A stretch of 64,000 bases of DNA from Acidimicrobiales bacterium (GCA_050012675.1 JBEKGS010000001.1:128733-192732); one strand, 5' to 3'. Counted from the stretch's first letter, positions 6,176-50,599 are shown. Made by a program: numbers and translations. The notes: a model not told the origin generated them from the letters alone.

Positions 6176-7369
6176 ATGACACGCCGCCCCGCCACCTGGA
6201 GGTCGCGCCCGTCGCGAGGGCACCGATACCTGCCGTGCGCGACAGGGGCGCTCCTGAGCGTGCTCTTTGTCTCGTTCGCGCCGGGGACCGCCGCCCCTTT
6301 GGGCACCGAGGCTGTGGCCACGCCGCAGGTCGCGACCCCGAACGTCGCCTGCGCCGGGGCCGGTGCCGTCTCCACCTGGACCCTCTCGCGGCTCGCCTCT
6401 CAGGTCGTCGTCGTTCCCGTCGACGAGAGCGAGGTCGCTTCGGTGGCGCCCGAGGTCGCCGCCGGGGTGGGTGGGGTGATCCTGCTCGGGGCGAGCGCAC
6501 CCTCAGACCTCAAAGCGGCGCTCGGTCACCTCGCCGCAACGGCGCCCGACGGCATCGCCCCGTTCGTGATGACCGATGAGGAAGGTGGCGTGATCCAGCG
6601 CATGGCGAACCTGGTCGGGTCCATCCCCTCGGCGAGGCAGATGGGCGCCACCATGACGACGTCGGAGATCCGCCTTCTGGCCACGAACCTCGCCCGGCGC
6701 ATGCTGGCGGCGGGCGTGACGATGGACCTTGCTCCGGTGCTCGACGTCGACGGCGGCCAGGGTCCCGACAACGAGGACCCGGACGGCACGCGCTCGTTCA
6801 GTGCCGACGAGAAGATCGCGTCGGAGGACGGGCTCGTCTTCGCGGCCGGGCTCGAGGCGGGCGGGATCGTGCCCGTCGTCAAGCACTTCCCCGGCCTCGG
6901 CGGGGCGACGGGCAACACCGACGTCATGCCGGCCTCCACACCGCCGTGGAGCACCCTCAAACATGACGGGCTCATCCCCTTCGAGGACGCGATCGAGGCG
7001 AAGGTCCCGGCGGTCATGATCTCCAACGCCACGGTTCCCGGGCTGACCGGCGTTCCTGCGAGTGTCTCCCCTGCCGTCATCACGGGGCTGCTGCGCCATC
7101 AGCTCGGCTTCAAGGGCCTCGTCATCACCGACTCGCTCTCGGCTGTAGCCCTCAGCGCTGCCGGGTACACGGTCCCCGAAGCGACCGTGGCGGCTTTGGA
7201 GGCGGGCGCGGACATGGTGCTGTTCGACGCGGACCCGACAGCTGTGGCGTCGGTCACGAAGGAAACGATCTCCGCGGTGACGGCCGCTGTGAGCGCGGGC
7301 AAGCTGGGGCGTTCCCGGCTCGTGAGCGCCGTCACTCACATCCTCGATGTCAAGCACTTCAAGTGCTGA
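6176..7369 (+). CDS. Glycoside hydrolase family 3, NagZ/LpqI-like beta-N-acetylhexosaminidase (secreted or lipoprotein)
   Basis: Contains the KHFPGLGGATGNTD motif, the GH3 N-terminal domain only (397 aa), and an N-terminal hydrophobic signal-like segment. Confidence 0.8.
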   Translation: MTRRPATWRSRPSRGHRYLPCATGALLSVLFVSFAPGTAAPLGTEAVATPQVATPNVACAGAGAVSTWTLSRLASQVVVVPVDESEVASVAPEVAAGVGGVILLGASAPSDLKAALGHLAATAPDGIAPFVMTDEEGGVIQRMANLVGSIPSARQMGATMTTSEIRLLATNLARRMLAAGVTMDLAPVLDVDGGQGPDNEDPDGTRSFSADEKIASEDGLVFAAGLEAGGIVPVVKHFPGLGGATGNTDVMPASTPPWSTLKHDGLIPFEDAIEAKVPAVMISNATVPGLTGVPASVSPAVITGLLRHQLGFKGLVITDSLSAVALSAAGYTVPEATVAALEAGADMVLFDADPTAVASVTKETISAVTAAVSAGKLGRSRLVSAVTHILDVKHFKC

Positions 7370-21797: not shown

Positions 21798-23201
21798 TTG
21801 GCAGGACGGCCAGCCGTCCCGAGCGGCTTCGAAGTCCGCGGGAAGGGTGATCTGTTGATCCACCGAACCGGCCTCGAGGAGGCGATAAGGCGCGCTGCCG
21901 ACCCGGTGGTGCTCACCCAGCGGGTTGCTGACGAGGCCATGACCCTCGTCGCGAGCGTCGAGGGAGTTCTCGTCGGCTTCATCCAGGATCCGTCGTGTCT
22001 GGCCTTCGAGTGTGGCGCGGGTTTTCTCGAACCAGAGATCGGTTGTCGGATGGCGCTGGACGAGTCGCTGGCCGGGCTGGCGTTCCGAAGCGGCGTGACC
22101 CTTCACTCCGATGACGTCGAGAGTGACCCGCGTTGTCGACGGGTGCAAGGTGTCCGGTCGTTGGTATGCGTACCGCTCTGGCGTCAGTCCCAAACGGCCG
22201 GGGTGCTTGTGGTCGCTTCGTCCCGACCGCGGGCGTTCGACGATCGCGACGTCGCGACCCTGACGAGCCTTGCCGAGTTCATCAGCGTCGTGATCACAGT
22301 TGCCGTCGACCTGGCGGGCGCTACGGACGCGTTTCTCTCCCGCGTCTGTAGCGACACCGTCAGCACCTCCGTGTGCGAAGGTGCCGACCGGGATGCCGAG
22401 ACGCGGTTCGTTGCCAACGTGTTGAACCCGGGAGCCTCCAGCAGGCTCGAGATCCGCAGGCGAATCGACCGCGTTCTCAAAGGACACGGCCTCAGCCACG
22501 TGTTCCAGCCTGTTTTCGACCTGAGGAGCGGGGAGTGCTTTGCAGTCGAGGCGCTCGCCCGGTTCGCGGGCAGGCCAAAGCGGACACCTGACGTGTGGTT
22601 CGCAGAGGCGCACGCCATGGGTGACGGCATCGATCTGGAGGTCATCTCGGCAAGGCGAGCCTTGAGCTATTCGCGGCGGCTTCCGCGAGGGGTCGCCCTC
22701 TGCGTGAACGCGAGCCCCGAAGCGATGATCTCAGAGGAGCTGCTCCACGTCCTCGAAGGCTCCGACGCGGAGCACCTCGTCATGGAGCTGACCGAGGAGG
22801 CCAGGGTCGACGACTACCCTCGCCTTTCTCGCGTGCTCGACGAGATGCGCCTGAAGGGCGTACGCCTGGCCATCGATGACACCGGCGCAGGCTTTGCGAG
22901 CCTTGCCCACATCTTGAAACTCGTCCCCGACTTCATCAAGCTGGACCGCGAGCTCACCTCCGGCATCGACCACGACCCCGTCCGCATCGCCCTAGCGACC
23001 GCCCTCGTGAGTTTCGCGTCGGGGCTCGGGGCCGAGATCATCGCCGAGGGGATCGAGACTGCGGCCGAGCTCGAGGTGCTTTGCAGTCTGGGGATCGGTT
23101 ACGGGCAGGGGTTCTTCTTGTGCAGGCCGACATCGGTCGACTCGATCCCGGATCGGCTGCCCACCGAGCTGCTCCCGGCTGTCTCGGCGCTGGCGTCTTG
23201 A
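21798..23201 (+). CDS. GAF domain - EAL domain protein (c-di-GMP phosphodiesterase)
   Basis: EAL-domain blocks FAVEALARF, MELTE, AIDDTGAGFAS, IKLDR, AEGIET and GYGQGFF are present. The N-terminal ~170 aa are GAF-like. No GGDEF domain. The start is uncertain. Confidence 0.85.
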   Translation: MAGRPAVPSGFEVRGKGDLLIHRTGLEEAIRRAADPVVLTQRVADEAMTLVASVEGVLVGFIQDPSCLAFECGAGFLEPEIGCRMALDESLAGLAFRSGVTLHSDDVESDPRCRRVQGVRSLVCVPLWRQSQTAGVLVVASSRPRAFDDRDVATLTSLAEFISVVITVAVDLAGATDAFLSRVCSDTVSTSVCEGADRDAETRFVANVLNPGASSRLEIRRRIDRVLKGHGLSHVFQPVFDLRSGECFAVEALARFAGRPKRTPDVWFAEAHAMGDGIDLEVISARRALSYSRRLPRGVALCVNASPEAMISEELLHVLEGSDAEHLVMELTEEARVDDYPRLSRVLDEMRLKGVRLAIDDTGAGFASLAHILKLVPDFIKLDRELTSGIDHDPVRIALATALVSFASGLGAEIIAEGIETAAELEVLCSLGIGYGQGFFLCRPTSVDSIPDRLPTELLPAVSALAS

Positions 23202-24658: not shown

Positions 24659-24963
24659 CGAAGGCCCTTTCTGAGTGACCCGGCCACAGCAGGTCAGCTG
24701 TGTGGACAAGCCGCGATCGTCATACGGTAATGGCCAAGGTCGCCCCGCCGTCCGTGGTCGCTGATCGCGGCGGCACGCCGAACGCCTCGGACAAGCTCTT
24801 GGCAGCCGCGGCGACGCCACAGGACGGGGTGCGCGGTGAGGACTCGGAGTCGTCCCGGCTGTCCTTGACGCCGGGCATATGCTGAGAGTGGTCGGGTCGT
24901 CACAAGTTGAGACCTGGTCCTGGGGGGGAGGCCGGCGACACTGTGAGTAGTCCGCGCAACGAG

Positions 24964-27900
24964 ATGGACCGGCGTTCGGCACTCAAGCTGATCGGGGGCG
25001 CAGTCGCCGGCGTCGCAGTCGGCCCGCGCATGTTGGCACGCCCCGGCCCCTCCTCGAAGTACCCGCTGGTCCCGTTCAGGTCCTACGGCCACTCGTTCCC
25101 GGCGCCGCTGCGCGCGGCCCTCACAAGTTCGGCCAAGCCGAGCCTGGTCTTCCAAGTCGTCCGGACCACCGACATGGTCTATCTCGGCTTCGAGTTCTAC
25201 AACGCCAAGGTTGTCGTCACGGCCGGTCAGACCGAGATAGTCGCCGAGGACACCAAGACGCCGATGTACATGGTCGTCGTGTTCCCTTCCCAGCACCTCG
25301 GCGAGGAGTGCGTTGCCTACACGCCGGGAGTGACCACTTGGCCGACCAGCCCCATGAGAGGCGCCCTTGCCGGTTTCAGCTGGCTCGTGTTCGAGCTTGC
25401 CGGCACGGCCAAGGTTCCCTACACGATGGCGGGTCTCCTCGACTGGTCGAAGGCGAAGCCCGAGCTCGTTCCGGTCGTCACCTCCAGCTCGGGCGAACCT
25501 GCCCCGCCGGATCCCCTCCATACAGCCCTCGAGATCCCCTGGCAGCTCTGGCTCACGCCCCTCGAGCACGGCACCTGGCACCATGCGGCCAGCCCGGTCG
25601 TCTTCAAGCAGATCACCGAGCTCTGGCACACCCGCCTAGGAGCTGGTGACTTCGAGCCGCCGGTGGTCACTCCGTTGCTCAAAGCCTTCTGGGCCCCCGG
25701 CTACGGCGGCACCCTTGCCGGTCCTCCGGCCGACCCGTGGCTCATGTCCCTGTTGCCGCAGAACCGCATCGACATCGTGGCACTCACCACCGGTAGCACT
25801 GCAGGCGACGCTCCGATCGAGGTCGACCTGCTCCTTCTCTCGGCGCTCGGGGCGTCGGTCAACATCCAAGGATCGTGGTCGCCCGGCCCCAACACTCCCG
25901 TCGACACGGCGTCGTGGTGGCACCGTGCATCGGTCGGGCGCGACAGCTACGTGCGCGTCGTCAATATCGGTTACCTCTTCCCGTGGGGCAACCGGGCCAG
26001 CCGGATCACGATCTCGGACCGGGAGATCCAGGTCAACTCCGACGGCGAGGCGGTCGCCTACCTGGTGCAGAAGCAGTACATCGCAGTGAAGGAGCCGGAG
26101 ATCGTCTACACCGGCGACCACTTCGAGCCCAACGACGGGAGGGGCAACCCGATCCGGAGCCTTCTCGTGAAGACGGTGACGACCCCGCCGATCGACTTCG
26201 ACAACACGGTCGATCCGGGCATCAACGTCGGTCCCTTTGCTTCCGACACCGCCGACGTCTTGTGGGTGCGAAGCGGTTTGGAGGACGTCCCGTTCTCTTT
26301 CGTCGGCACCGACGCGGAGGAAAGGAGTGTCGACTTCACGACCGGTGTCATCTGGGTGTCGTCCAGCTTCGCCGAGAACGCGGGCAATCTCCAAAAGGTC
26401 GCTGCGGCTTATGCCGCCGATCCCAGCCGGCGCTCGCCGTCGTTCGGCGGGTCGCTGTTCGCTTTCGCGGACACACTCGGCGCCACCCCGGGGTCCACGG
26501 CCCAGCACGTCAACACCTACGGGCTGGCGGCGCTCGTCGCCGTGAACGGCAGGGCGAACTTCTACCCCGCGCTCGACTCGGCGGCGGTCAGCCTGCCGGG
26601 GGCGGAGCAGATCGTGGGCGCCGGCTCCAGCGCCCTCGCGAGTCCGAGCGTGTCGATCTCGTCCAACTACCTCGCCCACGGGTTCCAAGCCGGAGTGACC
26701 GAGGTGTACCTCGCCGTGACCGAGAACGGCCCCGGCCTTTCCTTCCCGGCCAACCTCGTCGGTGGCATGGCCACGCCCAACTTCGACGTGAGCGGGATAG
26801 CCCGGGACCTCGGTCCCGTCGGTGGCGACCTCAACGACCTGCTGGCGGGCAAGTTCGACCCGACGAAGTACTTCAACATGGTCTCCGGGGACATAGGCAA
26901 GCTCCTCGGCGCCATTTCGGTCGCGGACATCATCCTGCCCGTCGATCCCGACCAGGCCGCGAGCAACGCGCAAGCCCCGCAGATCTCCGACAAGATCATC
27001 TACCCGGACAACGACGACACCAAGCCCCCGACGGCACTCGACGTGAAGATCGACTGGACCCCGACCGTTACGGCGGACCCGACAGGCTTGTTCCAGCCAC
27101 AGGGCGGGGGCCTCACCATCCACGCCGAGATCTACACCCCGATCGCCAACCCGAGCCAGACGACCTACTCGATCCACGGGGACCTCACCAATTTCGAGCT
27201 GCTCCTGTTCGGGACCGACAATCCCTACATCGCGATCACGTTCAACTCCTTCAGCTTCGACTCGAAGACCGGTGCCAAGACCTCGATCCAGCCGGACATC
27301 GACTCTGTCGAGTTCAAGGGCCCGCTCACGTTCATCTCCGAGCTCGAGAACCTGCTCAGCTCGCTGGGTGGCCCGTCGATCTCGGTCAGCGACGGCGGTG
27401 TGGAGGCGAGTTACTCGCTCGCGTTGCCGGATATCGGAGTCGGGGTTTTCGCCCTCCAGAACCTCGCTCTGTCCGCCGGGGTCAACATCCCCTTCGACGG
27501 GACCCCGGTCCGGGTCCGCTTCGGCCTTTCCTCGAGGGACAACCCGTTCATCCTCACCATCGACCTGTTCGGCGGCGGGGGCTTCTTCTCGCTCGGGATC
27601 GGCGCGGACGGGATCGAGCTGATCGAGGTCTCGTTGGAGTTCGGCGCAGACTTGTCCATCGACCTCGGCGTGGCGAGCGGGGGCGTGTCGATAATGGCCG
27701 GGATCTACTTCTCGCTCCAGACCGTTCCGACAAAACAGATCCAGCTCACCGGTTTCCTGCGCGCCGACGGGAACCTGTCCGTGCTCGGGATCATCACGAT
27801 CTCGATGGAGTTCTACCTCGGGCTGACATATCTGGACCCCGGCAAGGCCTACGGCACTGCGACCATCTCGGTCTCGGTGAGCGTGCTGTTCGTGAGCGTC

Positions 27901-28008
27901 TCGGTGGGCGTGACCATGCAAAAGACCATCGGCGGGAGCGGCGACCCCGATTTCAGACAGGCCCTGACGGAGAAGAACTGGCAAACCTACTGCGAGGCCT
28001 TCGCATGA
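24964..28008 (+). CDS. Large Tat-signal protein of unknown family (1,014 aa), giant ORF A
   Basis: The N-terminus MDRRSALKLIGGAVAGVAVGPRMLARP has a twin-arginine motif (RRxALK), an h-region and an A-x-A-like cleavage site. Strong GC3 bias runs across all 3 kb. I recognised no named domain. The stop overlaps the next start (ATGA). Confidence 0.85.
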   Translation: MDRRSALKLIGGAVAGVAVGPRMLARPGPSSKYPLVPFRSYGHSFPAPLRAALTSSAKPSLVFQVVRTTDMVYLGFEFYNAKVVVTAGQTEIVAEDTKTPMYMVVVFPSQHLGEECVAYTPGVTTWPTSPMRGALAGFSWLVFELAGTAKVPYTMAGLLDWSKAKPELVPVVTSSSGEPAPPDPLHTALEIPWQLWLTPLEHGTWHHAASPVVFKQITELWHTRLGAGDFEPPVVTPLLKAFWAPGYGGTLAGPPADPWLMSLLPQNRIDIVALTTGSTAGDAPIEVDLLLLSALGASVNIQGSWSPGPNTPVDTASWWHRASVGRDSYVRVVNIGYLFPWGNRASRITISDREIQVNSDGEAVAYLVQKQYIAVKEPEIVYTGDHFEPNDGRGNPIRSLLVKTVTTPPIDFDNTVDPGINVGPFASDTADVLWVRSGLEDVPFSFVGTDAEERSVDFTTGVIWVSSSFAENAGNLQKVAAAYAADPSRRSPSFGGSLFAFADTLGATPGSTAQHVNTYGLAALVAVNGRANFYPALDSAAVSLPGAEQIVGAGSSALASPSVSISSNYLAHGFQAGVTEVYLAVTENGPGLSFPANLVGGMATPNFDVSGIARDLGPVGGDLNDLLAGKFDPTKYFNMVSGDIGKLLGAISVADIILPVDPDQAASNAQAPQISDKIIYPDNDDTKPPTALDVKIDWTPTVTADPTGLFQPQGGGLTIHAEIYTPIANPSQTTYSIHGDLTNFELLLFGTDNPYIAITFNSFSFDSKTGAKTSIQPDIDSVEFKGPLTFISELENLLSSLGGPSISVSDGGVEASYSLALPDIGVGVFALQNLALSAGVNIPFDGTPVRVRFGLSSRDNPFILTIDLFGGGGFFSLGIGADGIELIEVSLEFGADLSIDLGVASGGVSIMAGIYFSLQTVPTKQIQLTGFLRADGNLSVLGIITISMEFYLGLTYLDPGKAYGTATISVSVSVLFVSVSVGVTMQKTIGGSGDPDFRQALTEKNWQTYCEAFA

Positions 28009-39617: not shown

Positions 39618-40274
39618 GCGGGAGAAAGCCGTCGTTCGACCGAGGGTGAGACTCGTGGTGCGATCCGCGATCTCCCGATGGAGCCTGCCGAGCCAGCCTG
39701 CCTCGTAATCCGGTGCTCGCTCGTCGAATGCCGCAATATCACGATGCCGCGACGCTGGCCTGACAAGTCCCTCATTCCGTGACGTCTTAGCGGTCCTCTC
39801 CTAGGCCCCGACGAAGACCGTCGCTAGCGGTCGTGGAAACCCAACCATGTTGTCCCATCTTGTCATGAAGGAACAAAGGCGCAGGTGGGGATCCAGGCCC
39901 GTGCCGATGTAGTGAACAGCGAACCGTAGGACTCTCGATCTCGCGCTTCTCAGATCCCATCACGCACTGGACGATTCATCCAAATCCCTCGCAATTGGTT
40001 GTTCGTTCCGGACAGGGACTACGCCATTTCTTACTTGTTAAGTTAAGTATCAATCGCGGGGGGGAAGCCTGCGAAACATCGGAATGTGATCGAGAGTGCG
40101 AGGGGATAATGGCTCGGTCTGTAATCACCCGGGAGGGTCGCTGGCTACGCCCATACGGCATACGCGGCTCACGAATTGAGCGCACGGGGAGCGCATCGCG
40201 CGTCTCGCTCGCTGTTGAAGAGAAGATTTGCGCCGACGCCCCAGCCGAACAGCGGTAGCGCCTTGGACACCTCG

Positions 40275-41138
40275 ATGCTCAAAGGCTCGGAAACGACCGA
40301 GGTTCGGTACCTTGTATTGCCCGACATCGCGAACCCGTACCTGCTCGCGATGGTGCGCTTTCCCGACGTTGCCCAGGCGATCAGCCAGGGACAGCCCGAG
40401 TGGCAGGGCGACCCGGGCCTGTTCGATCTCCCTTACGACCCGAGCAGCGTCGCGGTGTCGCCCGCCCACGCCGCTTCGATTGCGGCCCGCTGGGGCGCGC
40501 GCCTGCCTTCCGACAAGGAGGAGCCCGCATCCTCGCTGATCCGGCGTATGCCGGCCAACTGGTCCAACCTCTCGCCCGCGGAAAAGCGCGCCTGGTCTCT
40601 CGAGTACCTCGCCGGATGGCGACGGGCGGCCCCACTTTCCCGGATACGCCGTCGCTCGGCGCGCCCGGCCGACTTGGGCCAGGCCGGAAATGGGTTCAGC
40701 CTTCCCGACGCGACGGGCGACGGATCATCGCCATCTAACGGCTCTTATTTGGCAAGCGGTGGCCGGAGCAGACAGACGCCAGCGACCCGGGAACGCCGAC
40801 GCCACGCCCGGGTGCGTGTCCGGGGACGAGCGCGCCTGAGCATTGGGCGCAAGACCGTCTTGGCGAATCTGGTCAATGTCAGCCAGGGCGGAGCAAATTG
40901 CGTGGTGGCGGACGGGGAGTTTCACCTCGCGCCCGGTGGCTTGATCGAAGCGCCCCTCATGTTCGAGGATCAGCTCTCCCTGTCCCAGGTCAGCCTCGAC
41001 GTCGCCGCCAGCGTCGCCTGGAGAAGCGATACAGGGACCGGCACCCAGTTCGGGCTCGTGTTCGGTGAGCTGAACAACGATCAGGCCGAACTGGTCCAGC
41101 AATTCCTGTCGTCGGTCGGTTCTGAGACAGGTTCCTGA
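40275..41138 (+). CDS. PilZ-domain (c-di-GMP receptor) protein with an uncharacterised N-terminal domain
   Basis: The C-terminus has canonical PilZ motifs: RRRHAR (RxxxR), then NVSQGG (N-x-S-x-x-G) about 25 residues later. ATG 40275 is chosen over the upstream track start at 40176. The stop lies 2 nt before the lepB ATG. Confidence 0.7.
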   Translation: MLKGSETTEVRYLVLPDIANPYLLAMVRFPDVAQAISQGQPEWQGDPGLFDLPYDPSSVAVSPAHAASIAARWGARLPSDKEEPASSLIRRMPANWSNLSPAEKRAWSLEYLAGWRRAAPLSRIRRRSARPADLGQAGNGFSLPDATGDGSSPSNGSYLASGGRSRQTPATRERRRHARVRVRGRARLSIGRKTVLANLVNVSQGGANCVVADGEFHLAPGGLIEAPLMFEDQLSLSQVSLDVAASVAWRSDTGTGTQFGLVFGELNNDQAELVQQFLSSVGSETGS

Positions 41139-41140: not shown

Positions 41141-41944
41141 ATGCGCGTGAGCTCTCCCAGCACGGGAGAACAGCCGCCTGCGTCCGGCGGCGTGGCTCTC
41201 GAACAAGCGGAGCGTGGTTCGGTCGCAGGCTTTGTCGCGGGCGACGGGGACCAGAGCGTGAGGCCGGCGAGGGCATTTCGCTCGCGCAGGGGCGCCGACT
41301 ACCGACTGCGGGGGCTGGAACTGGCCCGGCCGGAGACGGCCGCGAAGCCGGCGCAACCGGCAAAGAAGCTGCGGGCCCGGCAGAGTCGGCGAAAGCACCG
41401 CAGACTGGTAGTCAAGTGGGCCGTCGTCCTCGCCGTGGCCGCCGCCGCCGCCGTGTTTCTGAGGGCTTCTGTGTTCCAGCCCTTCTCCGTGCCTTCGGCT
41501 TCGATGTTGCCTACCCTCCAGGTCGGCGATCGGATACTCGTAGTGAAGTCGAGCCCCTTGGCCGGAGCCATCCGGACAGGGGATATCGTCGTCTTCCGCC
41601 ATCCGAAGCCATTTCCCTGCAGCTCGGGTGAGGTCAAGGCCGGGGACCTCGTGCAGCGGGTGATCGGTCTGCCCGGTGAGACGATCTGGTCCGACGGTGA
41701 CAGGATCTATGTGAACGGTCGCCCGCTGAGCGAGGCGGGCTGGTACGACTCGCTGTACGGGCAGGTCGGATCCACGCCGATACTCCGTACGACGATCCCG
41801 CAAGGCGAGTACTTCGTGATGGGTGACAACCGCTCGGATGCATGCGACTCCCGGGCGTTCGGCGCGGTTGCCCGATCGGCCATTGTCGGCAAGGTGTTCG
41901 CCATCGTCATGCGCGCCGGTCACCCGTACATCCACCTGTTCTGA
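41141..41944 (+). CDS. lepB: Signal peptidase I
   Basis: Catalytic boxes SVPSASMLPTLQVGDRILV (Ser), HPKPF...LVQRVIGLPGE (Lys box) and GDNRSDACDSRAFG. It has a single TM after a basic N-terminal extension. Confidence 0.9.
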   Translation: MRVSSPSTGEQPPASGGVALEQAERGSVAGFVAGDGDQSVRPARAFRSRRGADYRLRGLELARPETAAKPAQPAKKLRARQSRRKHRRLVVKWAVVLAVAAAAAVFLRASVFQPFSVPSASMLPTLQVGDRILVVKSSPLAGAIRTGDIVVFRHPKPFPCSSGEVKAGDLVQRVIGLPGETIWSDGDRIYVNGRPLSEAGWYDSLYGQVGSTPILRTTIPQGEYFVMGDNRSDACDSRAFGAVARSAIVGKVFAIVMRAGHPYIHLF

Positions 41945-41990
41945 GCCGCGCGCGGCTCCCAGGCATCCAGGTCCCAAACGGAGCCGTCAG

Positions 41991-43097
41991 GTGGTCCTCG
42001 TCACCAGGTTCGTGACGTGGTGCCGCCAACATGCAGGTGGGCGGCGCTGGGCCGGTGTGCTTGTTGCCCTGTGCAGCCTCGCGCCGCTCCTTGCTGCGTG
42101 CGCACAGGCTGACGCCGGACCCGCAAGGGTTTCCCTACTGCCAGATCCCGCTGCCAACGGGGCGACTTGGGCCTGGACCGCACGCTGCCTCTACGGTCCT
42201 TACTCGCACGGAACCTGTAAAGACGCGGGGCCCAGTCTCGGGGCCGCCCAGCTGATCGGGGATGAATGGAATCTGGGCGGCGGCGCGGCGACGGCCGGGT
42301 CACTGGACATGTCGGTGAGCTCTCCCGGAGCGCTGGAACTAGAGGGTGACTTTCCCTCCACGCCGCCCTGCACTCAAGCCACCTGTCTCGCACCGAGCGC
42401 GAACACCTGGGTGCGCGGTTATCCAGACGTGCTGTATGGCTTCAATGAATGCCATACGGTCAGCCCTCCGCCGCAGTCCCGGGTCATGCCGATGCCGGTC
42501 AACGTCGCTGCCATCCCTACCGATCTCATCGGCACCACGACCTACGACTCGACGTCGCCGACGGTGACCTATGACGTCGCCTACGACCTTTGGCTCAATC
42601 GTTCGGACACGAAGAGACCCTGCAGAACAGAGGGCACAGTCGAGGTCATGGTCTGGACCGACTATGACCAGCAGGCGTTGCTGCCCTCGAGTATGCAAGT
42701 CGAAGACGTGACCATCCCGTTCGCGAGCGACGGGGTCGTCCACACCGGCACGTTCGCCTGGTCCGTCTACGTGAGCAACGTGTACGGGAAGGGCCAGACC
42801 GCACCGTGGGGCGGCACGGTCTGGTTCGTGTTGAACAAGGCTGACGTCGTCGCCAAGGGCACGGTGAGCGTCGACCTCAGCTATGTCCTTTCAGTCGTGG
42901 GCGCGCTCTTGCAGAACAACTACGGCTGGAACGACTTTCGCAAGAGCTACTGGCTCGACTCGATACCCTTCGGAATGGAGTTCGGCCCCGAGGACGGCGC
43001 TCTTTACGGCACGGGGTCGTCGTACTTCTCGCTCAGGCTCTCGTCCTACTGCCTCGACGTGGGGGCGACACTCTCACACGCAGCCTGCGCCGGGTGA
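41991..43097 (+). CDS. GH12-like endo-beta-1,4-glucanase, lipoprotein
   Basis: GTG 41991 gives a signal with lipobox (LCSLAPLLAAC). GH12-type blocks are present: IGDEWNLGG, YDVAYDLWLN, GTVEVMVWTDY (nucleophile Glu motif E-[IV]-M-[IV]-W) and WLDSIPFGMEFG (acid/base Glu). The track ORF start at 41823 overlaps lepB. Confidence 0.65.
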   Translation: MVLVTRFVTWCRQHAGGRRWAGVLVALCSLAPLLAACAQADAGPARVSLLPDPAANGATWAWTARCLYGPYSHGTCKDAGPSLGAAQLIGDEWNLGGGAATAGSLDMSVSSPGALELEGDFPSTPPCTQATCLAPSANTWVRGYPDVLYGFNECHTVSPPPQSRVMPMPVNVAAIPTDLIGTTTYDSTSPTVTYDVAYDLWLNRSDTKRPCRTEGTVEVMVWTDYDQQALLPSSMQVEDVTIPFASDGVVHTGTFAWSVYVSNVYGKGQTAPWGGTVWFVLNKADVVAKGTVSVDLSYVLSVVGALLQNNYGWNDFRKSYWLDSIPFGMEFGPEDGALYGTGSSYFSLRLSSYCLDVGATLSHAACAG

Positions 43098-43144: not shown

Positions 43145-46036
43145 CTACCTGGTCGACAGCGTCACACTGCCGGTCGAAACCCCCGACAGGTTCTCGTCAA
43201 AGGAAGTGACGATGGCGCTGTGGAAGGTCTCCGTCGTCTCGATCGTGCTCGCGTGGTCACCTCCCGCCTGCTGGCTGACGACGAGCGTGAGGGCGGGGAT
43301 CCCCTTTCCGGGAACGCCGCTACGAAGGATCTCGTCCAAGAGCGCGAGCGAGGAGGTCTGAAAGCTCAGGCTGAACCGCCCCGCGGATCTCCCGGCGGAC
43401 GTCCGCGGTTGTGAGAGCTCGACCGACGTCACGGGGTAGGCGACAGCCGCCCTGGAGCGGGCCGTGCCGACCTTGACAGAGAGCGCCGTGACGCTCGGCG
43501 AGGCCTGTTCAGTGTGGGCGACGACACCGAGAGCCCGGACGGCTCGGGGAGAGGTGAGCAGGTGGCCGAGCACGGGCAGCGAGAGCGTCGCCCCACCTGT
43601 CGGCAAGCCGGAGAGGTTCTCGTGGAACGAGGTGACGACGGCGTTGTAGAAGGTATCGGCCGCCTCGGTCGCGATCGCCCGCCCGCCGCTTGCCTGCGTG
43701 CGTGCAACCAGCGTGAGCTCAGGGACGGTCCTTCCGGACCCGTCGTAACCGAAGACCGCTTCCAAAGCGGCGAGCGAGGAGGTGTCGAAGCTCAGCTCGA
43801 GTCGGTCGGGCGAACCGGCTGCTGAGGAAAGCGGTTGAGACAGCTCGACCGAGGTGACGGGGAAATAGGTCCTCGACGGGGTCCCGCCCAGCGTCATGTA
43901 GACCTGCGTACCCGCCGACGAGTGGAAGACCGTGCGCTGATTGAACGTGTTCGCGCTCAGAAGCGTCGAAGGGGTGATGAAGGCACCCGCTATTCCCCCC
44001 GCACCGATTGCGAAAAGGAGAGCGAGAGCCGGGCCCAACACAGGCACAGGCGGCCGGCCGCGTCGCGCCCGGCGAAGACGCTGTTGCTCGAAGCGTTGCC
44101 GATAGGTGAGTGCGGGCAGCCGTTGCGCCCGTTGGTTCCACAAGGAAGCGACCGGCGAGCACGCGTACACCGAGCCCTGAATGGCGATGATGACGACCAG
44201 CAGCCAAGGCGGATGTGCTGATGCGGCGAGCAGGCCCGCCGAGGTGTACAGGGCGACCGCCAACAGGGTCTCGACGCGACTCAACCGCAGCGCAGTGCGT
44301 ACCCTTTGGCGACTGCCACCGGACTTGGCGGTTCTCAAGAACACGCCGTCTCGTCGTGTCAGGCCCTCTATGCAGGCGAGAGCCGTGATCCAGGTCGCGG
44401 AGAGGCTGATCAAAAGGCCGAGGAAGGCGCGGCGATGAGACATGGTCGTCCAATGGCGCAGCGTCCACATCATGCAGATTGCGGCGATCAGGATGAGCGA
44501 CATCGGCAGCAGTGACCGGTCGCCGCCAAAAGGCATGAGGGCGAAGCCGGAGCCGGAGAGCCGCAGCCCTGTTATCACGAGCAGTAGCACGGCGAAGCCG
44601 AACATCAGCAGGTCTCTCCACCATCCGAAACAAGCCATCAGATAGTCCCTGCGCTGACTGCTCGAGAGGTGGTTGTCAGGCGAGCGGTCGAAGGGCATGA
44701 GGCTGCGCCAGTGGAGGCGGAAGATCTGCATGGCGCCGAAGCACCAGCGGTGCCGTTGTGTGTTGAGACCGGCGTAGGTGGGTGGCACGATTCCCCGGCC
44801 GAAGCAGCGCGGTATGTAGAGGCCCGCCCAGCCCGCCTTGGACATGCGAAGGGACGCCTCGGTGTCCTCGCTGATGCACCACTCGTTCCAGCCACCGATG
44901 CCGACGAGTGCACTGCGGCGGAACAGGCCCATTGTCCCTACAAAAGGAACTGAGTCGCGCTCGTTGCGCGAAGACATGACGGAGAGATAGAAGCCTTGAT
45001 AAGAGTCGACACAGGCCGTGTAGTAGGCGCTGCCCTCGTAGTCCCTGTTGCCCTCGAAGGTCTGGAGGAAGCCGAGGTGCGGATCGGAGAAGTACGGCAC
45101 GGTCTCGCGCAGGTAGTACGGCTGGACGATGTCGTCGGCGTCGATCAAGCCGATGATCTCTGCTCGCGGGTCTGTGTAGCGGCGTAAGGCGAGGTTGCAG
45201 GCACCGGCCTTGTAGCCCGGCCAGGGTGCGACATGGACGAACCGGACGCGCTCGCGACCGCGGCAGTACTCCTCCACCGGACCGTAAACCGCAGGGTCCG
45301 AGGTGTTGTTGTCGATGACGACCACTTCGAAATTCGGGTAGTCGATCGCCTCGGCCGCCTTGATCGTGTTGATGAGAAGCTCGGGTGGTTCGTTGTAGGC
45401 AGGGATGTGCAGTGAGACGAACGGCTTGTAGGAGGGATCGGCGACCGGCAACGGGCGTGAGCGGCGCCGGCGGCACAGGACGTCGCTGACGTAGTTGATG
45501 TTCGAGCCCCACACTATGAAGGCCGCGAGATCGAGCAGGAGCAGGAATGAAGACGTCAAAGCTTCGGCGATCGAATGCGTCGCCGCGGCCGCGACATATC
45601 CCGCAAAGGCGATGAAGGTGAACCCTGCTGCGATATAGGAGGCGTGGAAGACCGAACCGACGATCCCGGTGTCGGGGCGGAGGACTATTACGACGACCTC
45701 GAAGATCACGAGCATATAGGCCGCTATCTCGAGCCCACCGATGGGCTTTCCCCAAAGCTCATAGGTGGCAAAGCAGGAGAAGGCAGAGATCGCGACCGCG
45801 CCAAGAGCGGCTAGGAGGACTTCGGTCACCTTGGAGCCCGTCCACCTCAAGCGGGTGTCAAACTCCCGAAGTGGGCTCAGCACCAGCACCGTCGTGAGCA
45901 GCAGCTGCGCGAACGAGACGATGAACAGGTCGTAGAGATTGAACTGACGCAGCAGCACTTGGACGTCCCCCCTCGCAGTCGTACACCTCGCCAAAGCGTG
46001 CGAGCTATACCTTATCGTGCCTTTTGCGGCGGGCAA
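43145..46036 (-). CDS. Processive GT2 beta-glycan synthase (cellulose-synthase-like) with a C-terminal tandem duplicated domain
   Basis: N-terminal TM bundle, then the GT2 blocks VVIDNNTSD, IDADD, GTMGLFRR, ISEDTE (TED) and QRHRWCFG (QxxRW). More TM helices follow, then ~250 aa made of two ~112-aa repeats. The start is uncertain (TTG 46036 or GTG 45958, which is preceded by GAGGGGGGG). Confidence 0.85.
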   Translation of the reverse strand: MPAAKGTIRYSSHALARCTTARGDVQVLLRQFNLYDLFIVSFAQLLLTTVLVLSPLREFDTRLRWTGSKVTEVLLAALGAVAISAFSCFATYELWGKPIGGLEIAAYMLVIFEVVVIVLRPDTGIVGSVFHASYIAAGFTFIAFAGYVAAAATHSIAEALTSSFLLLLDLAAFIVWGSNINYVSDVLCRRRRSRPLPVADPSYKPFVSLHIPAYNEPPELLINTIKAAEAIDYPNFEVVVIDNNTSDPAVYGPVEEYCRGRERVRFVHVAPWPGYKAGACNLALRRYTDPRAEIIGLIDADDIVQPYYLRETVPYFSDPHLGFLQTFEGNRDYEGSAYYTACVDSYQGFYLSVMSSRNERDSVPFVGTMGLFRRSALVGIGGWNEWCISEDTEASLRMSKAGWAGLYIPRCFGRGIVPPTYAGLNTQRHRWCFGAMQIFRLHWRSLMPFDRSPDNHLSSSQRRDYLMACFGWWRDLLMFGFAVLLLVITGLRLSGSGFALMPFGGDRSLLPMSLILIAAICMMWTLRHWTTMSHRRAFLGLLISLSATWITALACIEGLTRRDGVFLRTAKSGGSRQRVRTALRLSRVETLLAVALYTSAGLLAASAHPPWLLVVIIAIQGSVYACSPVASLWNQRAQRLPALTYRQRFEQQRLRRARRGRPPVPVLGPALALLFAIGAGGIAGAFITPSTLLSANTFNQRTVFHSSAGTQVYMTLGGTPSRTYFPVTSVELSQPLSSAAGSPDRLELSFDTSSLAALEAVFGYDGSGRTVPELTLVARTQASGGRAIATEAADTFYNAVVTSFHENLSGLPTGGATLSLPVLGHLLTSPRAVRALGVVAHTEQASPSVTALSVKVGTARSRAAVAYPVTSVELSQPRTSAGRSAGRFSLSFQTSSLALLDEILRSGVPGKGIPALTLVVSQQAGGDHASTIETTETFHSAIVTSFDENLSGVSTGSVTLSTR
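43154..43909 (-). repeat. Tandem ~340-nt duplication inside the GT2 gene, encoding two Hcp-like repeats (R1 43574-43909, R2 43154-43495)
   Basis: The duplication is visible at DNA level (for example GGTTCTCGTCAAAGGAAGTGACGATGGCGCTGTGGAAGGT versus GGTTCTCGTGGAACGAGGTGACGACGGCGTTGTAGAAGGT). It is also clear at protein level (YFPVTSVELSQP...LELSFDTSSLAALEAVF...PELTLVART...TFYNAVVTSFHENLSG versus AYPVTSVELSQP...FSLSFQTSSLALLDEIL...PALTLVVSQ...TFHSAIVTSFDENLSG). Confidence 0.8.
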
Positions 46037-46075: not shown

Positions 46076-47779
46076 TCACGGATGTTCCGTCCGGGCGGCG
46101 GACCCCTGAGTCGGCGAGGTCTTGCCGAACCCGTACAAGATGCCGTCTTGGACGCCGACATAGAGCATGTTCTCGCCTACACCCGGCGGGCTGAAGGCGT
46201 TGGTGTTGCCGACGAACCATGTCCCGAGGAGCTTCAGTCTCCGGTTCACCGGCACCGGCTCGTAGGCCTGGAGGCTCGCGCCGTCGATGACCCAGACGAC
46301 CGCAGATCCCGAGGTGGTGCCGTCGGAGGTCACGATGGGACCCGATACCCCGAAGACCGCCGCCTGCGAGCCGTATCCGACGAGGCTCAAGGCGGGCAGA
46401 CCACCTGTGGTCGAGTATTTGTAGACGTCTACCGCACCGGCGTGGCCGCTCGGGCTCTGAATCGTCGAGACGTAGACATAGCCCCCGTCACCGGGCCAGA
46501 CACCGGCTGTCGATATCGCTTGTCCGTTCGGCCCGTATTCCCCGACGACGTCGTCCCTCCCGCTCGGGCCTTGGTTGTGGCCACCGAGGTTGTCAGCGTT
46601 GAGCAGGTAGACGATGCCCTCTTTCCCAGTGGCGACAAGGAGATGCGGGTATTTCGGGGCGGAGAACTCAGTCGGCAACAGGACCGGTGAACCCGACATG
46701 TCCCAGTCGTTCTCGTCGGCCAGGGCGTCGTTGTGGATCGCGAAGAAATCCGTCGCCTTGAGTGAGCCGTCCTTTTGCACGCCGAGGCGGACGACGGAAT
46801 CACCGAGGTTCAAAGGTGGCGAGTGCCCGGGGATCGAGCCATCGGGATGGTTGGTCTCGGGGCCTTCGGCATTCCCGGACGCGAACAGGATCTGACCGGG
46901 ACCGTCGGAACTGAGACCACCGCTCGCCTGCCAGATGCCGGCTCCGCCGCCTTCGCTCCCTGGACCCGCTTCGTCGGTCCACAGCGTCGTCTGGCGGCCG
47001 GCGGTCGATACGCCCGCTACGAACCCGGCAAAAGGCGTGTGATCGCAGTGCGACCCGAAGGCGGCGTACACGACGCCGTCCAGGTACAAAAGGCCAGGCC
47101 TTTGCATCTCTTGCAGGGGACGGAACGCCTGTTGCGGGTTGTTGCTGGCTGGACCGTTGATCTCGACCGGGAAGCGGGGCATCTCGGCACCGGTGGCAGG
47201 GTTGATGGCGTTCATGAACCATCCAATCCCCGCACCGCCTGGCAAATGAACCTGATCGACGAGGTAGGCGACACCTGTGGTCGGGTCGATCGCCGGAGTT
47301 GAGGTCACTCCCAGGTAGGGGATCAGGTCAGGGCAGTGCACCGGAGCGTCTTCGAAGGGCGTCCCGATCTGGCGCGACCACTCAATGGCTCCCGTCGTCG
47401 GGTTGAGACCGTAGACCCAGTTGGTCTCCGTAGCGACGAGCAGAATCTTCCCGACGAGAAGGGGTTGCGCATAGATCTGGCCGTTGAGCTGTGTCTTGAA
47501 GACGATCCCGAACTGAGACGACCCTACGACTTCGGGGCTCAGGCCCGGCTCGTAGGAATACCAGCCGTCGCGAGAGTCGCCGCCCCGGTTTGTCTCAAGC
47601 TGAACGCTCTCGGGTGGGCCCGTCTGTTGGGCTGAGGCGGCGGCGCCCCTTTGTCCAGAGGTTCGCAGAGCCGCCCGCGTCTGCGCCGCGTGCCCGGTGG
47701 CCACGGCACCCGCGACTGTCGCCTCGACCACAAGCGCAGAAAGTGCCAGCGCGACCGTCAGCACGAGCACGGGCCGCAT
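46076..47779 (-). CDS. Secreted PQQ-like (BamB-like) beta-propeller repeat protein
   Basis: ATG 47779 gives the signal MRPVLVLTVALALSALVVEATVAGA. Repeated motifs are of the type GQIYAQPLLVGKILLVATETNWVYGLNPTTGAIEWSRQ. The stop lies 40 nt upstream of the GT2 gene start. Confidence 0.75.
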   Translation of the reverse strand: MRPVLVLTVALALSALVVEATVAGAVATGHAAQTRAALRTSGQRGAAASAQQTGPPESVQLETNRGGDSRDGWYSYEPGLSPEVVGSSQFGIVFKTQLNGQIYAQPLLVGKILLVATETNWVYGLNPTTGAIEWSRQIGTPFEDAPVHCPDLIPYLGVTSTPAIDPTTGVAYLVDQVHLPGGAGIGWFMNAINPATGAEMPRFPVEINGPASNNPQQAFRPLQEMQRPGLLYLDGVVYAAFGSHCDHTPFAGFVAGVSTAGRQTTLWTDEAGPGSEGGGAGIWQASGGLSSDGPGQILFASGNAEGPETNHPDGSIPGHSPPLNLGDSVVRLGVQKDGSLKATDFFAIHNDALADENDWDMSGSPVLLPTEFSAPKYPHLLVATGKEGIVYLLNADNLGGHNQGPSGRDDVVGEYGPNGQAISTAGVWPGDGGYVYVSTIQSPSGHAGAVDVYKYSTTGGLPALSLVGYGSQAAVFGVSGPIVTSDGTTSGSAVVWVIDGASLQAYEPVPVNRRLKLLGTWFVGNTNAFSPPGVGENMLYVGVQDGILYGFGKTSPTQGSAARTEHP

Positions 47780-48049
47780 TCGAGGAGACCGCGCCAACGG
47801 ACCTATCTTCGACGCAGCCCCTGGTCTTGTTGTGGGCCCAAGTGCACCAGGCACCGAGCACGAGTCAGTTCTTCTTCCCCCTCGCAATGACACGACACGC
47901 CTCCCCCAGCGAACGCTCCAAGAAAACAGCCACAACTTGTTATCCCAGGGCGGCACTCACGTGGCCACGTCCGGAGCTGTCATGGTAGCAAGGGTGTGAG
48001 GATCTGCTGTTCGATCCCGTACTTCGATCCGGAACCGGTTCCCGGGCGG

Positions 48050-50599
48050 CTACTCGTCGGTTGGCGGCACCGTCGTGGGCAGCCATGCTGTCACGTCGGC
48101 ACTGGACTGACCGAAGCCGACCATGTAACGGCCGCGGACGGTGCGGAAACGGCCGCCGAGGAAGGCTTCGAAACTGCTGAGCGGCAGCACCACGGTGACT
48201 TGTCCGGATGCCTTCGGGACGAGCGTCACGGTCTGGAATCCGGCAAGCTGGCGCGGAGGCTCGCCGGCGCCGACCGGAAAGCGCACGTAGATCTCGACCA
48301 CGTCGGTCCCGCTGCGTCTGCCCGCGTTGGTCACGGTCATGTGGGCGAGCAGGCGTTTGCCGCCCGTCCAGCTCAGGCTGACCTTCGAGACGGAGAAAGC
48401 GGTGTAGCTCAGCCCATATCCGAACGGGAACAAGGGCTGAACGCCATGTGCCTCGTACCAGCGGTAGCCGATGTCGAGACCCGACGCGTAGGTGACGGTG
48501 CCGTCCACGCCGGGAAAGTTGTTCCCGGCGGCTGCGCGCGCGGTCGCTTCTGTGGCCGGGAAGCTCAGGGGCAACCTGCCTGACGGGTCCACGAGACCGG
48601 TGAGGACCGCTGCGATGGCAGTCCCGTCGTCCTCCCCCGGGTACCAGGCTTCGAGGACCCCCTTGACACTTGCCAGCCAAGGCATGAGGACCGCGCCCCC
48701 GGTGTTCAGCACGACGACGGTCTCGGGGTTGGCTCTGGCCACCGCCTCGATGAGGGCGTTCGCGTCACCGGGCAGATCGAGGCTCGGCCGGTCGACGCCT
48801 TCGGCCTGGGGACAGCCGGCAAATACCAGGGCCACCTTGGAGTTGCGTGCGACATCGACGGCACGGGCGATGAGAGGTGAAACGTCCTCGAACCCGAGCT
48901 GTGGCAGGCGATCGCCGTCGACCGACAGCCACTCCACAACGAGCCTGTAGGAGCGTCCGGCCCGGAGTTCGGTCGTGGCGGACCAGCTGGGCCGAGCGTT
49001 GAGGCCCGGAGAGGCGAGCAGGCTGTGCCCGTTGACCGCGAGCCAGGTCTGGCCTCCATATTCGAGGGAGAACTCGTATACGCCACTGCGGCGAACGCGG
49101 ATCGCGGCCTTCCACGACCACCAAGGGCCAGCGGGTGAGGAGGCGGTGCGGACAGGGGGGGTGATGCTGGTCGCCGTTTCGGGCCCAGGGTCGCCGGCAC
49201 GCTCTGCGCCTGTCCGAGTCTCCGCCGGCAGAGGGCCGCCGCTCACAAAGTCAACCGAGGGGATGGGTTCCAGCACGCTTCCTGCCGGCTCACCGGCCGC
49301 AGTTCCGATCCTGGTGCCTTTGCGGAGAGCCTTTCGTAGGGCCTCGAGCGGGGTGATCAGGAAAGGGGGGTTGACGAAAGCGCTTCCTGCGCCCGCGGTC
49401 ACGGCCGCGCTCTCGGCGTCCAGGCCGATGACCGCGACCGAGCGGGGCGAGCGTGCGAGAGGCAGCACATGGGCGGCGTTCTTGAGCAGCACGACCGAGC
49501 GCTCAGCGACCCGCAGTGCTGTCAGGCCATCACGTGGCGTTGCCGCCGGTGCTGCGAGATTCGCGGTCCGGGGGTGGGCGATCAGGCCGTAGGCGAACAT
49601 CTCGGTGAGCACGCGAACGACGGCCGTGTTCAGCATGCTCAACGTGATCGAGTGCTGGCGGACGGCTCGGGTGATCAGCACCCTGGTTTCGTCTGCCTTG
49701 GTTGGCTTGATCAGGTCGAGCCCCGCCTGGAACGCTGGCGCCGGTGCGCTGACGGCCCCGAGGTCGGAGCGGACGAAGCCCGTGAAGCCCCATGAGCGCA
49801 GCAGCCCGTAAAGGCTCGGATCCGCGCAGTCGGTGACACCGTTCAAGACACCGTAAGCGCACATCACCGAGGCCACGTGTGCCTGAGTGACCACAGCCTG
49901 GAAGGGCTTGTCGTACAGCTCCAACAGGGCGCGCTCTGAGACGATCTCGCGGAGGGTCTTCCGTTGTGTCTCCTGGTTGTAGGCGGTGAAGTGCTTTGCG
50001 ACTGCCATCACGTCGCGGGACTGGATCCCCTCAACATCCGCGACACCCATGACGGAGGTGAGGAACGGGTCCTCGCCGAAGGCTTCGAAGGTCCGACCGC
50101 TTTGTGGTACCTGTGCCAGGTTCAACTCAGGGGCCTGCACGGCGTCGAGCCCCTTGGCGCGGGCCTCGACGCCCAGCACCTCGCCATAGTCGTAGGCGAG
50201 CTCCGGGTCGAAGGTGGCAGCCAAGGCGACCGAGGCCGGGAGCTGGGTGACGCCGCGGAGGTCGAAGGCAATGCCATTCGGGCCGTCGACAAGCGTCAGC
50301 GGAGGGATGCACAAAGCGGGCACACCGGTGTTGATGTTCTCGATCCGACCGCGCCGGACCAGTTCGACAAAGCCGACCTTCTCGGCGAGCGTCATCCTCG
50401 CGACCACCTGAACCGCCAGCTGCTCGGGAGCAGCAGCGTGCCTCAGGGACTCCTGCACCCAGGGGCAGCGGCTGGAGGCCCGCGAGCCGGCGGGGCGACC
50501 TACGGGAAGGCTGGAGGATCCTCGGTTGCACGCAGCGACGACGAGCGCCACCGCTACGGCCACTGTCACGCGACCAAGGAGCGGCTGATGGAGGTTCAC
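48050..50599 (-). CDS. GH3 beta-glucosidase with a PA14-like insertion and C-terminal FnIII-like domain; lipoprotein signal
   Basis: GH3 blocks are present (VAKHFTAYNQE, GFVRSDLGA, the GH3 C-terminal domain VLLKN...IAVIG, and LEAWYPGEDDGTAIAAVLTG). The PA14-like segment reads RSGVYEFSLEYGGQTWLAVNG. N-terminal lipobox ALVVAAC. Confidence 0.9.
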   Translation of the reverse strand: MNLHQPLLGRVTVAVAVALVVAACNRGSSSLPVGRPAGSRASSRCPWVQESLRHAAAPEQLAVQVVARMTLAEKVGFVELVRRGRIENINTGVPALCIPPLTLVDGPNGIAFDLRGVTQLPASVALAATFDPELAYDYGEVLGVEARAKGLDAVQAPELNLAQVPQSGRTFEAFGEDPFLTSVMGVADVEGIQSRDVMAVAKHFTAYNQETQRKTLREIVSERALLELYDKPFQAVVTQAHVASVMCAYGVLNGVTDCADPSLYGLLRSWGFTGFVRSDLGAVSAPAPAFQAGLDLIKPTKADETRVLITRAVRQHSITLSMLNTAVVRVLTEMFAYGLIAHPRTANLAAPAATPRDGLTALRVAERSVVLLKNAAHVLPLARSPRSVAVIGLDAESAAVTAGAGSAFVNPPFLITPLEALRKALRKGTRIGTAAGEPAGSVLEPIPSVDFVSGGPLPAETRTGAERAGDPGPETATSITPPVRTASSPAGPWWSWKAAIRVRRSGVYEFSLEYGGQTWLAVNGHSLLASPGLNARPSWSATTELRAGRSYRLVVEWLSVDGDRLPQLGFEDVSPLIARAVDVARNSKVALVFAGCPQAEGVDRPSLDLPGDANALIEAVARANPETVVVLNTGGAVLMPWLASVKGVLEAWYPGEDDGTAIAAVLTGLVDPSGRLPLSFPATEATARAAAGNNFPGVDGTVTYASGLDIGYRWYEAHGVQPLFPFGYGLSYTAFSVSKVSLSWTGGKRLLAHMTVTNAGRRSGTDVVEIYVRFPVGAGEPPRQLAGFQTVTLVPKASGQVTVVLPLSSFEAFLGGRFRTVRGRYMVGFGQSSADVTAWLPTTVPPTDE

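Follow-up and report, generated by a model that had tools for sequence, protein, structure and literature searches.

A cellulose-synthase-like enzyme of Acidimicrobiales with a tandem Hcp-like tail, a candidate extracellular collar

Two groups of described systems stand closest to the gene studied here: the cellulose synthases of the BcsA–BcsB type, and the Hcp/TssD proteins of type VI secretion systems (T6SSs) together with the tandem tube proteins of phages. Features of both meet in one polypeptide, a BcsA-like processive synthase of glycosyltransferase family 2 (GT2) whose C-terminal tail consists of two repeats that very probably have an Hcp fold. Its gene lies in a stretch of 64,000 nucleotides from an Acidimicrobiales bacterium (GCA_050012675.1 JBEKGS010000001.1:128733-192732), here called the window, and positions are counted from the first letter of that stretch. 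An earlier note on the window had proposed the Hcp-like tail from an alignment made by eye.

The synthase shares with BcsA–BcsB (4hg6, 5ej1; the E. coli Bcs macrocomplex) a GT2 core with QxxRW, TED-type and FxVTxK-type motifs, and both a glucanase and a PilZ protein are encoded in its cluster. Whereas PilZ is a C-terminal domain of BcsA, it is a separate protein here; the enzyme has an extra ninth transmembrane (TM) helix, TM9, and its putatively extracellular module is carried in cis and has an unrelated fold, with no BcsB homologue seen. The BcsB crown is an extracytoplasmic oligomeric ring that has been proposed to guide cellulose, the role that we propose for the tail. BcsZ is a GH8 enzyme, and the present glucanase is GH12-like. 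The CslA-GlxA-CslZ system of Streptomyces is likewise an actinobacterial GT2 enzyme with a membrane-anchored beta-propeller protein and an endoglucanase, but no Hcp-fold tail has been described for CslA, and the present cluster additionally encodes a PilZ protein and an S26 peptidase.

Hcp/TssD (PF05638; PDB 1y12, 4w64, 5xeu, 8yun) has the same fold and the same order of strands and helix as the repeats, with significant remote profile–profile homology over nearly the whole repeat. Unlike the repeats (∼117 aa, in tandem, fused to a nine-TM enzyme), Hcp is ∼160 aa long, free and secreted, and is encoded with sheath, VgrG and baseplate genes; no T6SS, phage-tail or contractile-system gene was found among the 40 open reading frames (ORFs) of the window scanned with Pfam. 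The repeats also differ in their predicted extracellular place on a polytopic membrane enzyme and in going unrecognised by PF05638. To our knowledge, Actinomycetota are not known to have a T6SS. The tandem phage tube proteins (T5 pb6/DT57C, 9iny and 8hrg; P74-26, 8ed0; SH-Ab15497, 8xan) consist, like the tail, of two fused tube-fold domains, but they are virion parts, which assemble into extended tubes enclosing a tape measure, and no phage gene was seen here in the window or the related loci. Judging from sequence identity between the two domains (48% in the synthase vs. 16% in P74-26), the duplication in the tail is independent of the phage one.

Hcp also occurs as a covalently linked module in multi-Hcp proteins, in natural "evolved" Hcp–toxin fusions and in engineered Hcp1 fusions (4ksr, 7o42), the last of which use Hcp1 to force hexamer formation, in concept much like the arrangement that we propose for the tail. 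These differ from the tail in scoring highly against PF05638 and in being soluble, adhesin-like or linked to a T6SS, and there is no membrane glycosyltransferase among them. Our literature search turned up neither a glycan synthase with an Hcp or tail-tube domain nor an operon of this type; the earlier note likewise knew of no described glycan synthase with this architecture. The synthase is of a known type, with a new and unexpected accessory module drawn from a known fold.

The synthase and the fold of its two repeats

The features of the synthase gene are as follows.

43145..46036, minus strand: whole gene, 963-aa BcsA-like processive GT2 synthase with a C-terminal tail of two putative Hcp-fold repeats (ORF list, Pfam)
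43145..43147, minus strand: stop codon of the synthase gene
44516..45418, minus strand: GT2 catalytic domain, aa 207-507 (Pfam PF13641/PF13632/PF00535; motifs read in translation)
44324..44341, minus strand: FLRTAK, aa 566-571, fitting the FxVTxK gating-loop motif, between TM6 and TM7 (sequence)
43967..44041, minus strand: extra ninth TM helix, aa 666-690 (hydropathy and charge tally)
43571..43921, minus strand: repeat 1, putative Hcp fold, aa 706-822 (repeat hidden Markov model [HMM], self-alignment, two-repeat AF2 model, hhalign)
43502..43570, minus strand: conserved inter-repeat linker, aa 823-845 (consensus ..SHVLTSPxALRRxGPF.. in the tail alignment A2)
43148..43501, minus strand: repeat 2, putative Hcp fold, aa 846-963, up to the C-terminus (single-repeat AF2 model, Foldseek, hhalign)

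The ORF and its Pfam GT2 domains (aa 207-507, E 1.9e-25 to 4.2e-17) confirmed a processive GT2 synthase of 963 aa, as the earlier note had read it. The enzyme has the hallmarks of the BcsA type: D, DxD, TED and QxxRW motifs between TM helices (DAD at 299-301; SED, the equivalent of the TED motif, at 389-391; QRHRW at 427-431) and a gating loop of the FxVTxK type ahead of the last two core TM helices. FxVTxK is the consensus of the BcsA gating loop, and is said to go back to Morgan et al. 2014. The closest solved structures are those of the cellulose synthase BcsA (5ej1/4hg6/4p00, E 2.7e-25 to 8.3e-25). Scores against the equivalog models of NCBIfam fell far under their cut-offs (CelA TIGR03030, E 7e-33 and 113.5 bits vs. 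a cut-off of 699; NF008558, 72 bits vs. 992), which argues for a cellulose-synthase-like enzyme and not a BcsA/CelA equivalog. No PilZ domain was matched by Pfam anywhere in the 963 aa. The predicted product is probably a beta-glucan, cellulose-like, as hinted by the adjoining GH12-like hydrolase and a GH3 beta-glucosidase 2 kb upstream (both listed below).

The repeats, whose boundaries were set by the repeat HMM, are 48% identical over 116 aa (pairwise BLASTP E 1e-31), and their DNA is 68.3% identical over 284 nt (E 8e-26). The duplication is genuine, visible in the DNA too and far above chance, just as the earlier note had described the part of the protein after the last TM helix; the span it gave (43154-43909, aa 710-961) falls within the HMM-delimited repeats. 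The linker between them was modelled with low confidence (pLDDT 44-58 in the two-repeat model).

Direct searches did not connect the repeats to Hcp. PF05638, which the earlier note had suggested running on the tail, gave no match to the whole protein or to the 261-aa tail even at E≤1; NCBIfam and PHROGs had no family match on the tail, and neither phmmer with a single sequence nor a 13-unit profile HMM (E≤10) found Hcp among PDB sequences. Chance-level matches of the tail to SusD-like, LIM-domain and methyltransferase entries were dismissed. The domain is rare: a search of 1.84 billion representatives with the repeat profile gave 79 matches, 55 of them at E≤1e-10, and seven relatives were present in a 90%-clustered database under the source name "hypothetical protein". 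The profile search also returned six long multi-repeat proteins, of which four (P0065, P0070, P0078, P0081) are chains of T6SS_HCP (PF05638) domains, six in three of them and five in the remaining one (Pfam E 4e-90 to 5e-213). All of the matches to these four lie inside Hcp domains and in one constant register, profile position n corresponding to Hcp position n+7. The other two consist of Ig and cadherin repeats and scored much the same per domain, and the scores against Hcp domains (4-10 bits) were no better than those against cadherin and Ig repeats; taken alone, the in-register matches suggest a relationship only weakly.

Because these per-domain scores did not discriminate, we added cadherin and Ig repeats as negative controls in profile–profile comparisons (hhalign), with an alignment of 23 PF05638 units from the multi-Hcp proteins as the target. 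Alignment A1 of the repeats matched the Hcp units with a probability of 93.6% (P 3.4e-8); the 108 aligned columns pair A1 8-117 with Hcp 1-122. The cadherin and Ig controls gave 0.2% and 0.7%. For the deeper alignment A3 (50 units) the probability was 95.2% (P 2.5e-8), and the controls reached 6% and 15%. The profile similarity that the earlier note had proposed looking for is thus present, and the three segments it had matched to Hcp by eye are the same columns that hhalign aligned.

The structural evidence points the same way. Repeat 2 (aa 840-963) was modelled with AlphaFold from A3, without templates; the model had a pLDDT of 86.9 and an order of three strands, one helix and then three long strands. 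In a Foldseek search of the PDB, a check that the earlier note had also proposed, 49 of the top 50 matches to the single repeat were T6SS Hcp structures or engineered Hcp1 fusions, and the sole other was the Afp tube protein. The probability was 1.00 throughout, with E down to 2.9e-5 and TM-scores on the query (TMq) of 0.41-0.67; sequence identity to the Hcp structures was 7-21%, and TM-scores on the target (TMt) were 0.43-0.59, the targets being longer. Among predicted viral structures the matches were all tail-tube or major-tail proteins and were weaker (best E 5.7e-4, TMq≤0.56). At the level of a single domain, the models thus place the repeat nearer to T6SS-type Hcp than to phage tube proteins.

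Taken together, we are highly confident that each repeat is a shortened (∼117-aa) Hcp-fold domain and a remote member of the Hcp/tail-tube superfamily. The Hcp/TssD-like assignment of the earlier note was supported by a blind profile search, by hhalign and by the structure search, and the outcome it had named as contrary, a carbohydrate-binding module (CBM) or Ig-like fold, did not appear: no CBM or Ig family was matched by sequence or structure. The relationship is remote, at the level of superfamily or fold and below membership in PF05638. The repeats end at the strand equivalent to "vtLnF" of Hcp, short of the ∼160 aa of the canonical protein. The domain family to which they belong comprises ∼55 clusters at 50% identity; it is missed by Pfam, NCBIfam and PHROGs, and is now covered by alignments and a confident model.

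Membrane position and distribution of the tail

In BcsA, the cytosolic gating loop is followed by TM7, TM8 and then the cytosolic PilZ domain (PMC8892547). In the present synthase, a hydropathy scan placed hydrophobic helices at 590-607 and 611-633, after FLRTAK, and a last hydrophobic segment at aa 666-690, with ∼273 C-terminal residues beyond it. An Arg-rich loop (aa 633-665, 10 K+R) precedes this TM9 and occupies the place of the cytosolic PilZ domain of BcsA. The gating-loop homology to BcsA, the positive-inside rule and the additional TM9 together led us to predict that the tail sits outside the cytoplasmic membrane. TM9 is specific to this family and is kept in tailed and tail-less homologues alike, and beyond it the tail-less relatives run on as Pro/Thr/Ser-rich low-complexity tails, consistent with an outside location.

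Related loci were gathered by a search with the full protein, taking one genome per species. The 52 loci, with the exception of one weak outlier, came from metagenome-assembled genomes (MAGs) of uncultured Acidimicrobiales, Acidimicrobiaceae or other Actinomycetota, mostly from soil and peat. The earlier note had spoken of a T6SS-less, Gram-positive-type genome: the second part is in keeping with these Actinomycetota relatives, and the first holds for the 40 scanned ORFs of the window. The survey of GT2 synthases that it had proposed found the same tandem tail in 13 loci (L001-L010, L012, L025, L038) in addition to the window, on proteins of ∼950-1000 aa. Some 38 loci encode tail-less proteins of ∼700-820 aa; in these, neither a stand-alone Hcp-like gene in the flanks (up to 10 kb) nor a hidden divergent repeat in the longer C-termini was detected.

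In a neighbor-joining tree of the catalytic core, the tailed Acidimicrobiales enzymes formed one clade nested among tail-less ones, with a Streptosporangiaceae copy (L012b) lying outside it. The phylogeny of the repeats was mixed: first and second repeats separate within the subclade of the window and within the Streptosporangiaceae-like group, and pair together in L005/L006, P0009 and P0018, which could be gene conversion or noise. Other modules follow TM9 elsewhere in the family. The tail-less clade L032/L033/L039 has a different, Gly/aromatic C-terminal module of ∼130 aa with repeats such as GYWLVGSDGSVYSFGDAQYFGS, and the clades L041, L044 and L046-L048 have long Thr/Pro/Ser-rich tails; modules seem to accrue preferentially at the site that follows TM9.

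Four proteins that seem to have a single repeat (P0035, P0042, P0046, P0067) were discounted as products of frameshifts or assembly errors, since their sequences run on out of frame as Arg/Pro-rich stretches. In L001 (3922..6754) the GT2 part and the tail were called as overlapping genes, probably owing to a frameshift or assembly artefact as well. Since entries are split or truncated by frameshifts in this way, the fusion is easily missed in automated surveys. In three MAGs, two genes for tailed synthases follow one another directly, with two repeats each (L008, 9875..15658; L009, 7811..13674; L012, 2..3866), raising the possibility of hetero-oligomeric rings. The four multi-Hcp proteins are metagenomic singletons of 1125-1554 aa, some with cadherin-like, Big_9 or RTX repeats, and one is named "VCBS repeat-containing protein" by its source. 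Six Hcp domains in one chain could make a covalently closed Hcp ring.

Possible roles of the tandem tail

A model of both repeats, built from eight sequences, had a pLDDT of 71.7 and a pTM of 0.70. Its best matches in the PDB came from T5 and DT57C (tail-tube and tail-tip proteins), from 8xan and from the tube protein of P74-26 (E 5e-6 to 1e-4, TMq 0.43-0.52, with a loose root-mean-square deviation [rmsd] of 8-11 Å), whereas single-domain Hcp reached a TMq of merely 0.23-0.31. One repeat makes up 45% of the model, and a lone domain superposed on Hcp scores ∼0.6 on its own length; values near 0.5 for the whole model suggest that both repeats superpose, if loosely. The tandem-duplicated tube proteins T5 pb6 and P74-26 form trimeric rings with pseudo-six-fold symmetry, and because the two-repeat model resembles them we propose a 3 x 2 ring for the tail. 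The idea of the earlier note that such domains could serve the nascent polymer as a conduit or scaffold is indirectly backed by this resemblance.

Four neighboring genes of the cluster figure in the readings that follow.

46076..47956, minus strand: 626-aa PQQ-like beta-propeller protein with an N-terminal hydrophobic segment, upstream of the synthase (weak sub-threshold Pfam PQQ/BamB-type matches, synteny)
41823..43097, plus strand: GH12-like glycoside hydrolase, convergent, with a lipoprotein-type N-terminus (..LLAAC..) and an uncertain start codon (Pfam PF01670)
41141..41944, plus strand: S26 type-I signal peptidase (Pfam PF10502 E 3.8e-43, synteny)
40176..41138, plus strand: stand-alone PilZ protein, PilZ domain at aa 206-311 (Pfam PF07238 E 3.4e-12, synteny)

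The two-domain tails would bring three synthase chains together, and their six Hcp-fold domains would form a pseudo-hexameric ring just over the membrane on its extracellular side. Such a ring would act as a collar, locking the synthases in a trimer and guiding or bundling the glucan chains as they emerge. In function it would resemble the periplasmic BcsB crown of Gram-negative cellulose synthases as well as plant CesA trimers. The PQQ-like propeller may be an extracellular partner of the same machine, the GH12 lipoprotein its chain-trimming enzyme and the separate PilZ protein its c-di-GMP switch. In favor of a ring, all 20 complete tailed proteins have two repeats, neither more nor fewer, and six domains per chain are present in three of the four related multi-Hcp proteins. 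A guide ring has a precedent in the BcsB crown, whose lumen is the proposed path of cellulose.

Several points weigh against this collar. Oligomerisation is argued here from models of the monomer, of which the two-repeat one is of moderate quality (with few sequences behind it and loose superpositions), and the topology of the tail is itself a prediction. Each repeat is without the ∼30 C-terminal residues of canonical Hcp, from which ring contacts might suffer, and PF05638 itself has no match on the tail. The polymer is named from the likeness of the synthase and from its neighbors. Most synthases of the family are tail-less, so the tail is an accessory and dispensable for the family as a whole. 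Weighing both sides, we offer the ring collar tentatively, by analogy with the phage tubes and BcsB, and give it a chance somewhat short of even.

A bolder version holds that the tail-tube/Hcp fold, which is known to date only from phage tails, contractile injection systems and T6SS, was exapted in Actinomycetota as a built-in extracellular 3 x 2 pseudo-hexameric collar of the synthase, perhaps stacking further or released by the S26 peptidase, that channels or bundles three glucan chains through the Gram-positive wall; this we consider fairly unlikely, if worth stating. If true, it would be an independent bacterial counterpart of the trimer-based fibril assembly of plant CesA and of the BcsB crown. 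The range of the tail-tube/Hcp fold, which is among the most conserved building blocks of nanomachines, would then extend from the delivery of nucleic acids and proteins to the export of polysaccharides, and the fold would be present in a phylum not known for T6SS. The locus would also provide a compact single-polypeptide system in which to study how oligomerisation and an extracytoplasmic guide ring shape a secreted polymer, with the tail-less and alternative-tail relatives as natural controls within the clade.

The strongest of the other explanations, which we still regard as unlikely, needs no ring. The two repeats would work within one chain as an extracellular glycan- or wall-binding module, analogous to the carbohydrate-binding domains of BcsB, that holds the nascent chain or tethers the synthase to peptidoglycan. 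The extracellular C-terminus of the family takes varied add-ons, from Pro/Thr/Ser linkers to the Gly/aromatic module of L032/L033/L039, as is typical of interchangeable binding modules; many members function tail-less, and the repeats lack the C-terminal part of canonical Hcp. The fold itself argues otherwise, as it has no known role in carbohydrate binding and all of its characterised members form six-fold or pseudo-six-fold rings. The lack of any CBM or Ig match tells against binding too, and the strict number of two repeats and their apparent packing in the manner of tandem tubes would be left unexplained.

The distribution of the propeller bears on a further possibility, that the tail mainly docks this protein (and perhaps the GH12 lipoprotein), recruiting an extracellular modifying or processing partner, much as GlxA acts with CslA in Streptomyces. 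In 11 of the 13 tailed loci the propeller gene immediately precedes that of the synthase on the same strand; among tail-less loci a strong homologue occurs in just two, elsewhere in the cluster, and a weak one in five. Further encouragement comes from the actinomycete cslA-glxA-cslZ cluster, which pairs a synthase with a membrane-anchored beta-propeller enzyme and a glucanase, and from T6SS Hcp rings, which are known to carry and chaperone partner proteins. The co-occurrence is imperfect, with a tail but no propeller match in L007 and a propeller but no tail in L029 and L037. Docking would moreover be compatible with the ring model and so would not be an exclusive alternative; as the main function of the tail we think it improbable.

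Much less probable still is that the S26 peptidase of the cluster cuts the tandem module off after TM9, to give free rings or a short wall-spanning tube. The peptidase gene is conserved in the cluster, small residues (AGA/TSA, then F) lie at the outer end of TM9, and Hcp rings are known to stack into tubes. We checked the junction of TM9 and tail as a tail-specific signal-peptidase site and found that its conserved A-x-x-P-x-x-LL motif is common to tailed and tail-less proteins; the peptidase is equally present in tail-less loci, so neither is tail-specific, and the shortened C-terminus of the repeats counts against this reading as well. Least probable of all is that the Hcp likeness arose by convergence or is artefactual, with the repeats forming a small beta-sandwich unrelated to Hcp: the absence of direct family matches and of Hcp among the PDB sequences found by HMM, the 4-10 bit scores that cadherin repeats equal and the 7-21% identities would allow it, but three methods concur while the controls fail (hhalign 94-95% vs. 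≤15%), four of the six long multi-repeat proteins drawn from 1.84 billion are very rare multi-Hcp proteins in one register, and Hcp fills 49 of the top 50 Foldseek matches at a probability of 1.00.

Gene cluster and surroundings

The cluster of GT2, GH12-like, S26 and PilZ genes is kept across ∼45 loci. The GH12-like gene adjoins the synthase in most related loci, and its PF01670 match is marginal (E 7.4e-6, 26.7 bits vs. a cut-off of 27). A dedicated S26 signal peptidase is unusual in a polysaccharide-synthase operon and is conserved in most cluster-bearing loci; the PilZ and S26 genes abut or overlap in many of them. The stand-alone PilZ protein, presumed to be a c-di-GMP receptor in trans, has ∼200 N-terminal residues without a family match. 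No informative solved relative of the propeller protein was found by sequence. The five neighbor families that we sought in the related loci are all glycan-related or regulatory, the remaining ORFs there being unannotated.

Further features of the window are listed here.

48050..50599, minus strand: GH3 beta-glucosidase with PA14 and Fn3-like domains, separated from the propeller gene by a 93-bp gap
6176..7369, plus strand: second ORF with a GH3 N-terminal domain
21798..23201, plus strand: GAF-EAL protein of the c-di-GMP phosphodiesterase type, ∼17 kb upstream of the PilZ gene
24907..28008, plus strand: 1033-aa gene without a Pfam family
about 28100..31970, plus strand: ∼1290-aa gene without a Pfam family, adjoining the 1033-aa gene
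55616..56743, minus strand: IS110-family transposase (DEDD_Tnp_IS110 + Transposase_20)

The GH3 genes, together with sugar ABC and MFS transporters, point to turnover of beta-glucan or oligosaccharides around the locus, and the GAF-EAL protein shows that c-di-GMP signaling components are encoded near it. Rfam and tRNA scans of the window found nothing. The 1033-aa and ∼1290-aa genes have a strong coding signal (third-position GC [GC3] of 0.85-0.95); the latter is listed as a 2031-aa ORF from 25875, and its third-position GC indicates that it is coding only from ∼28.1 kb. Around the IS110 transposase, at the 3' end of the window, G+C is lower (0.61-0.65).

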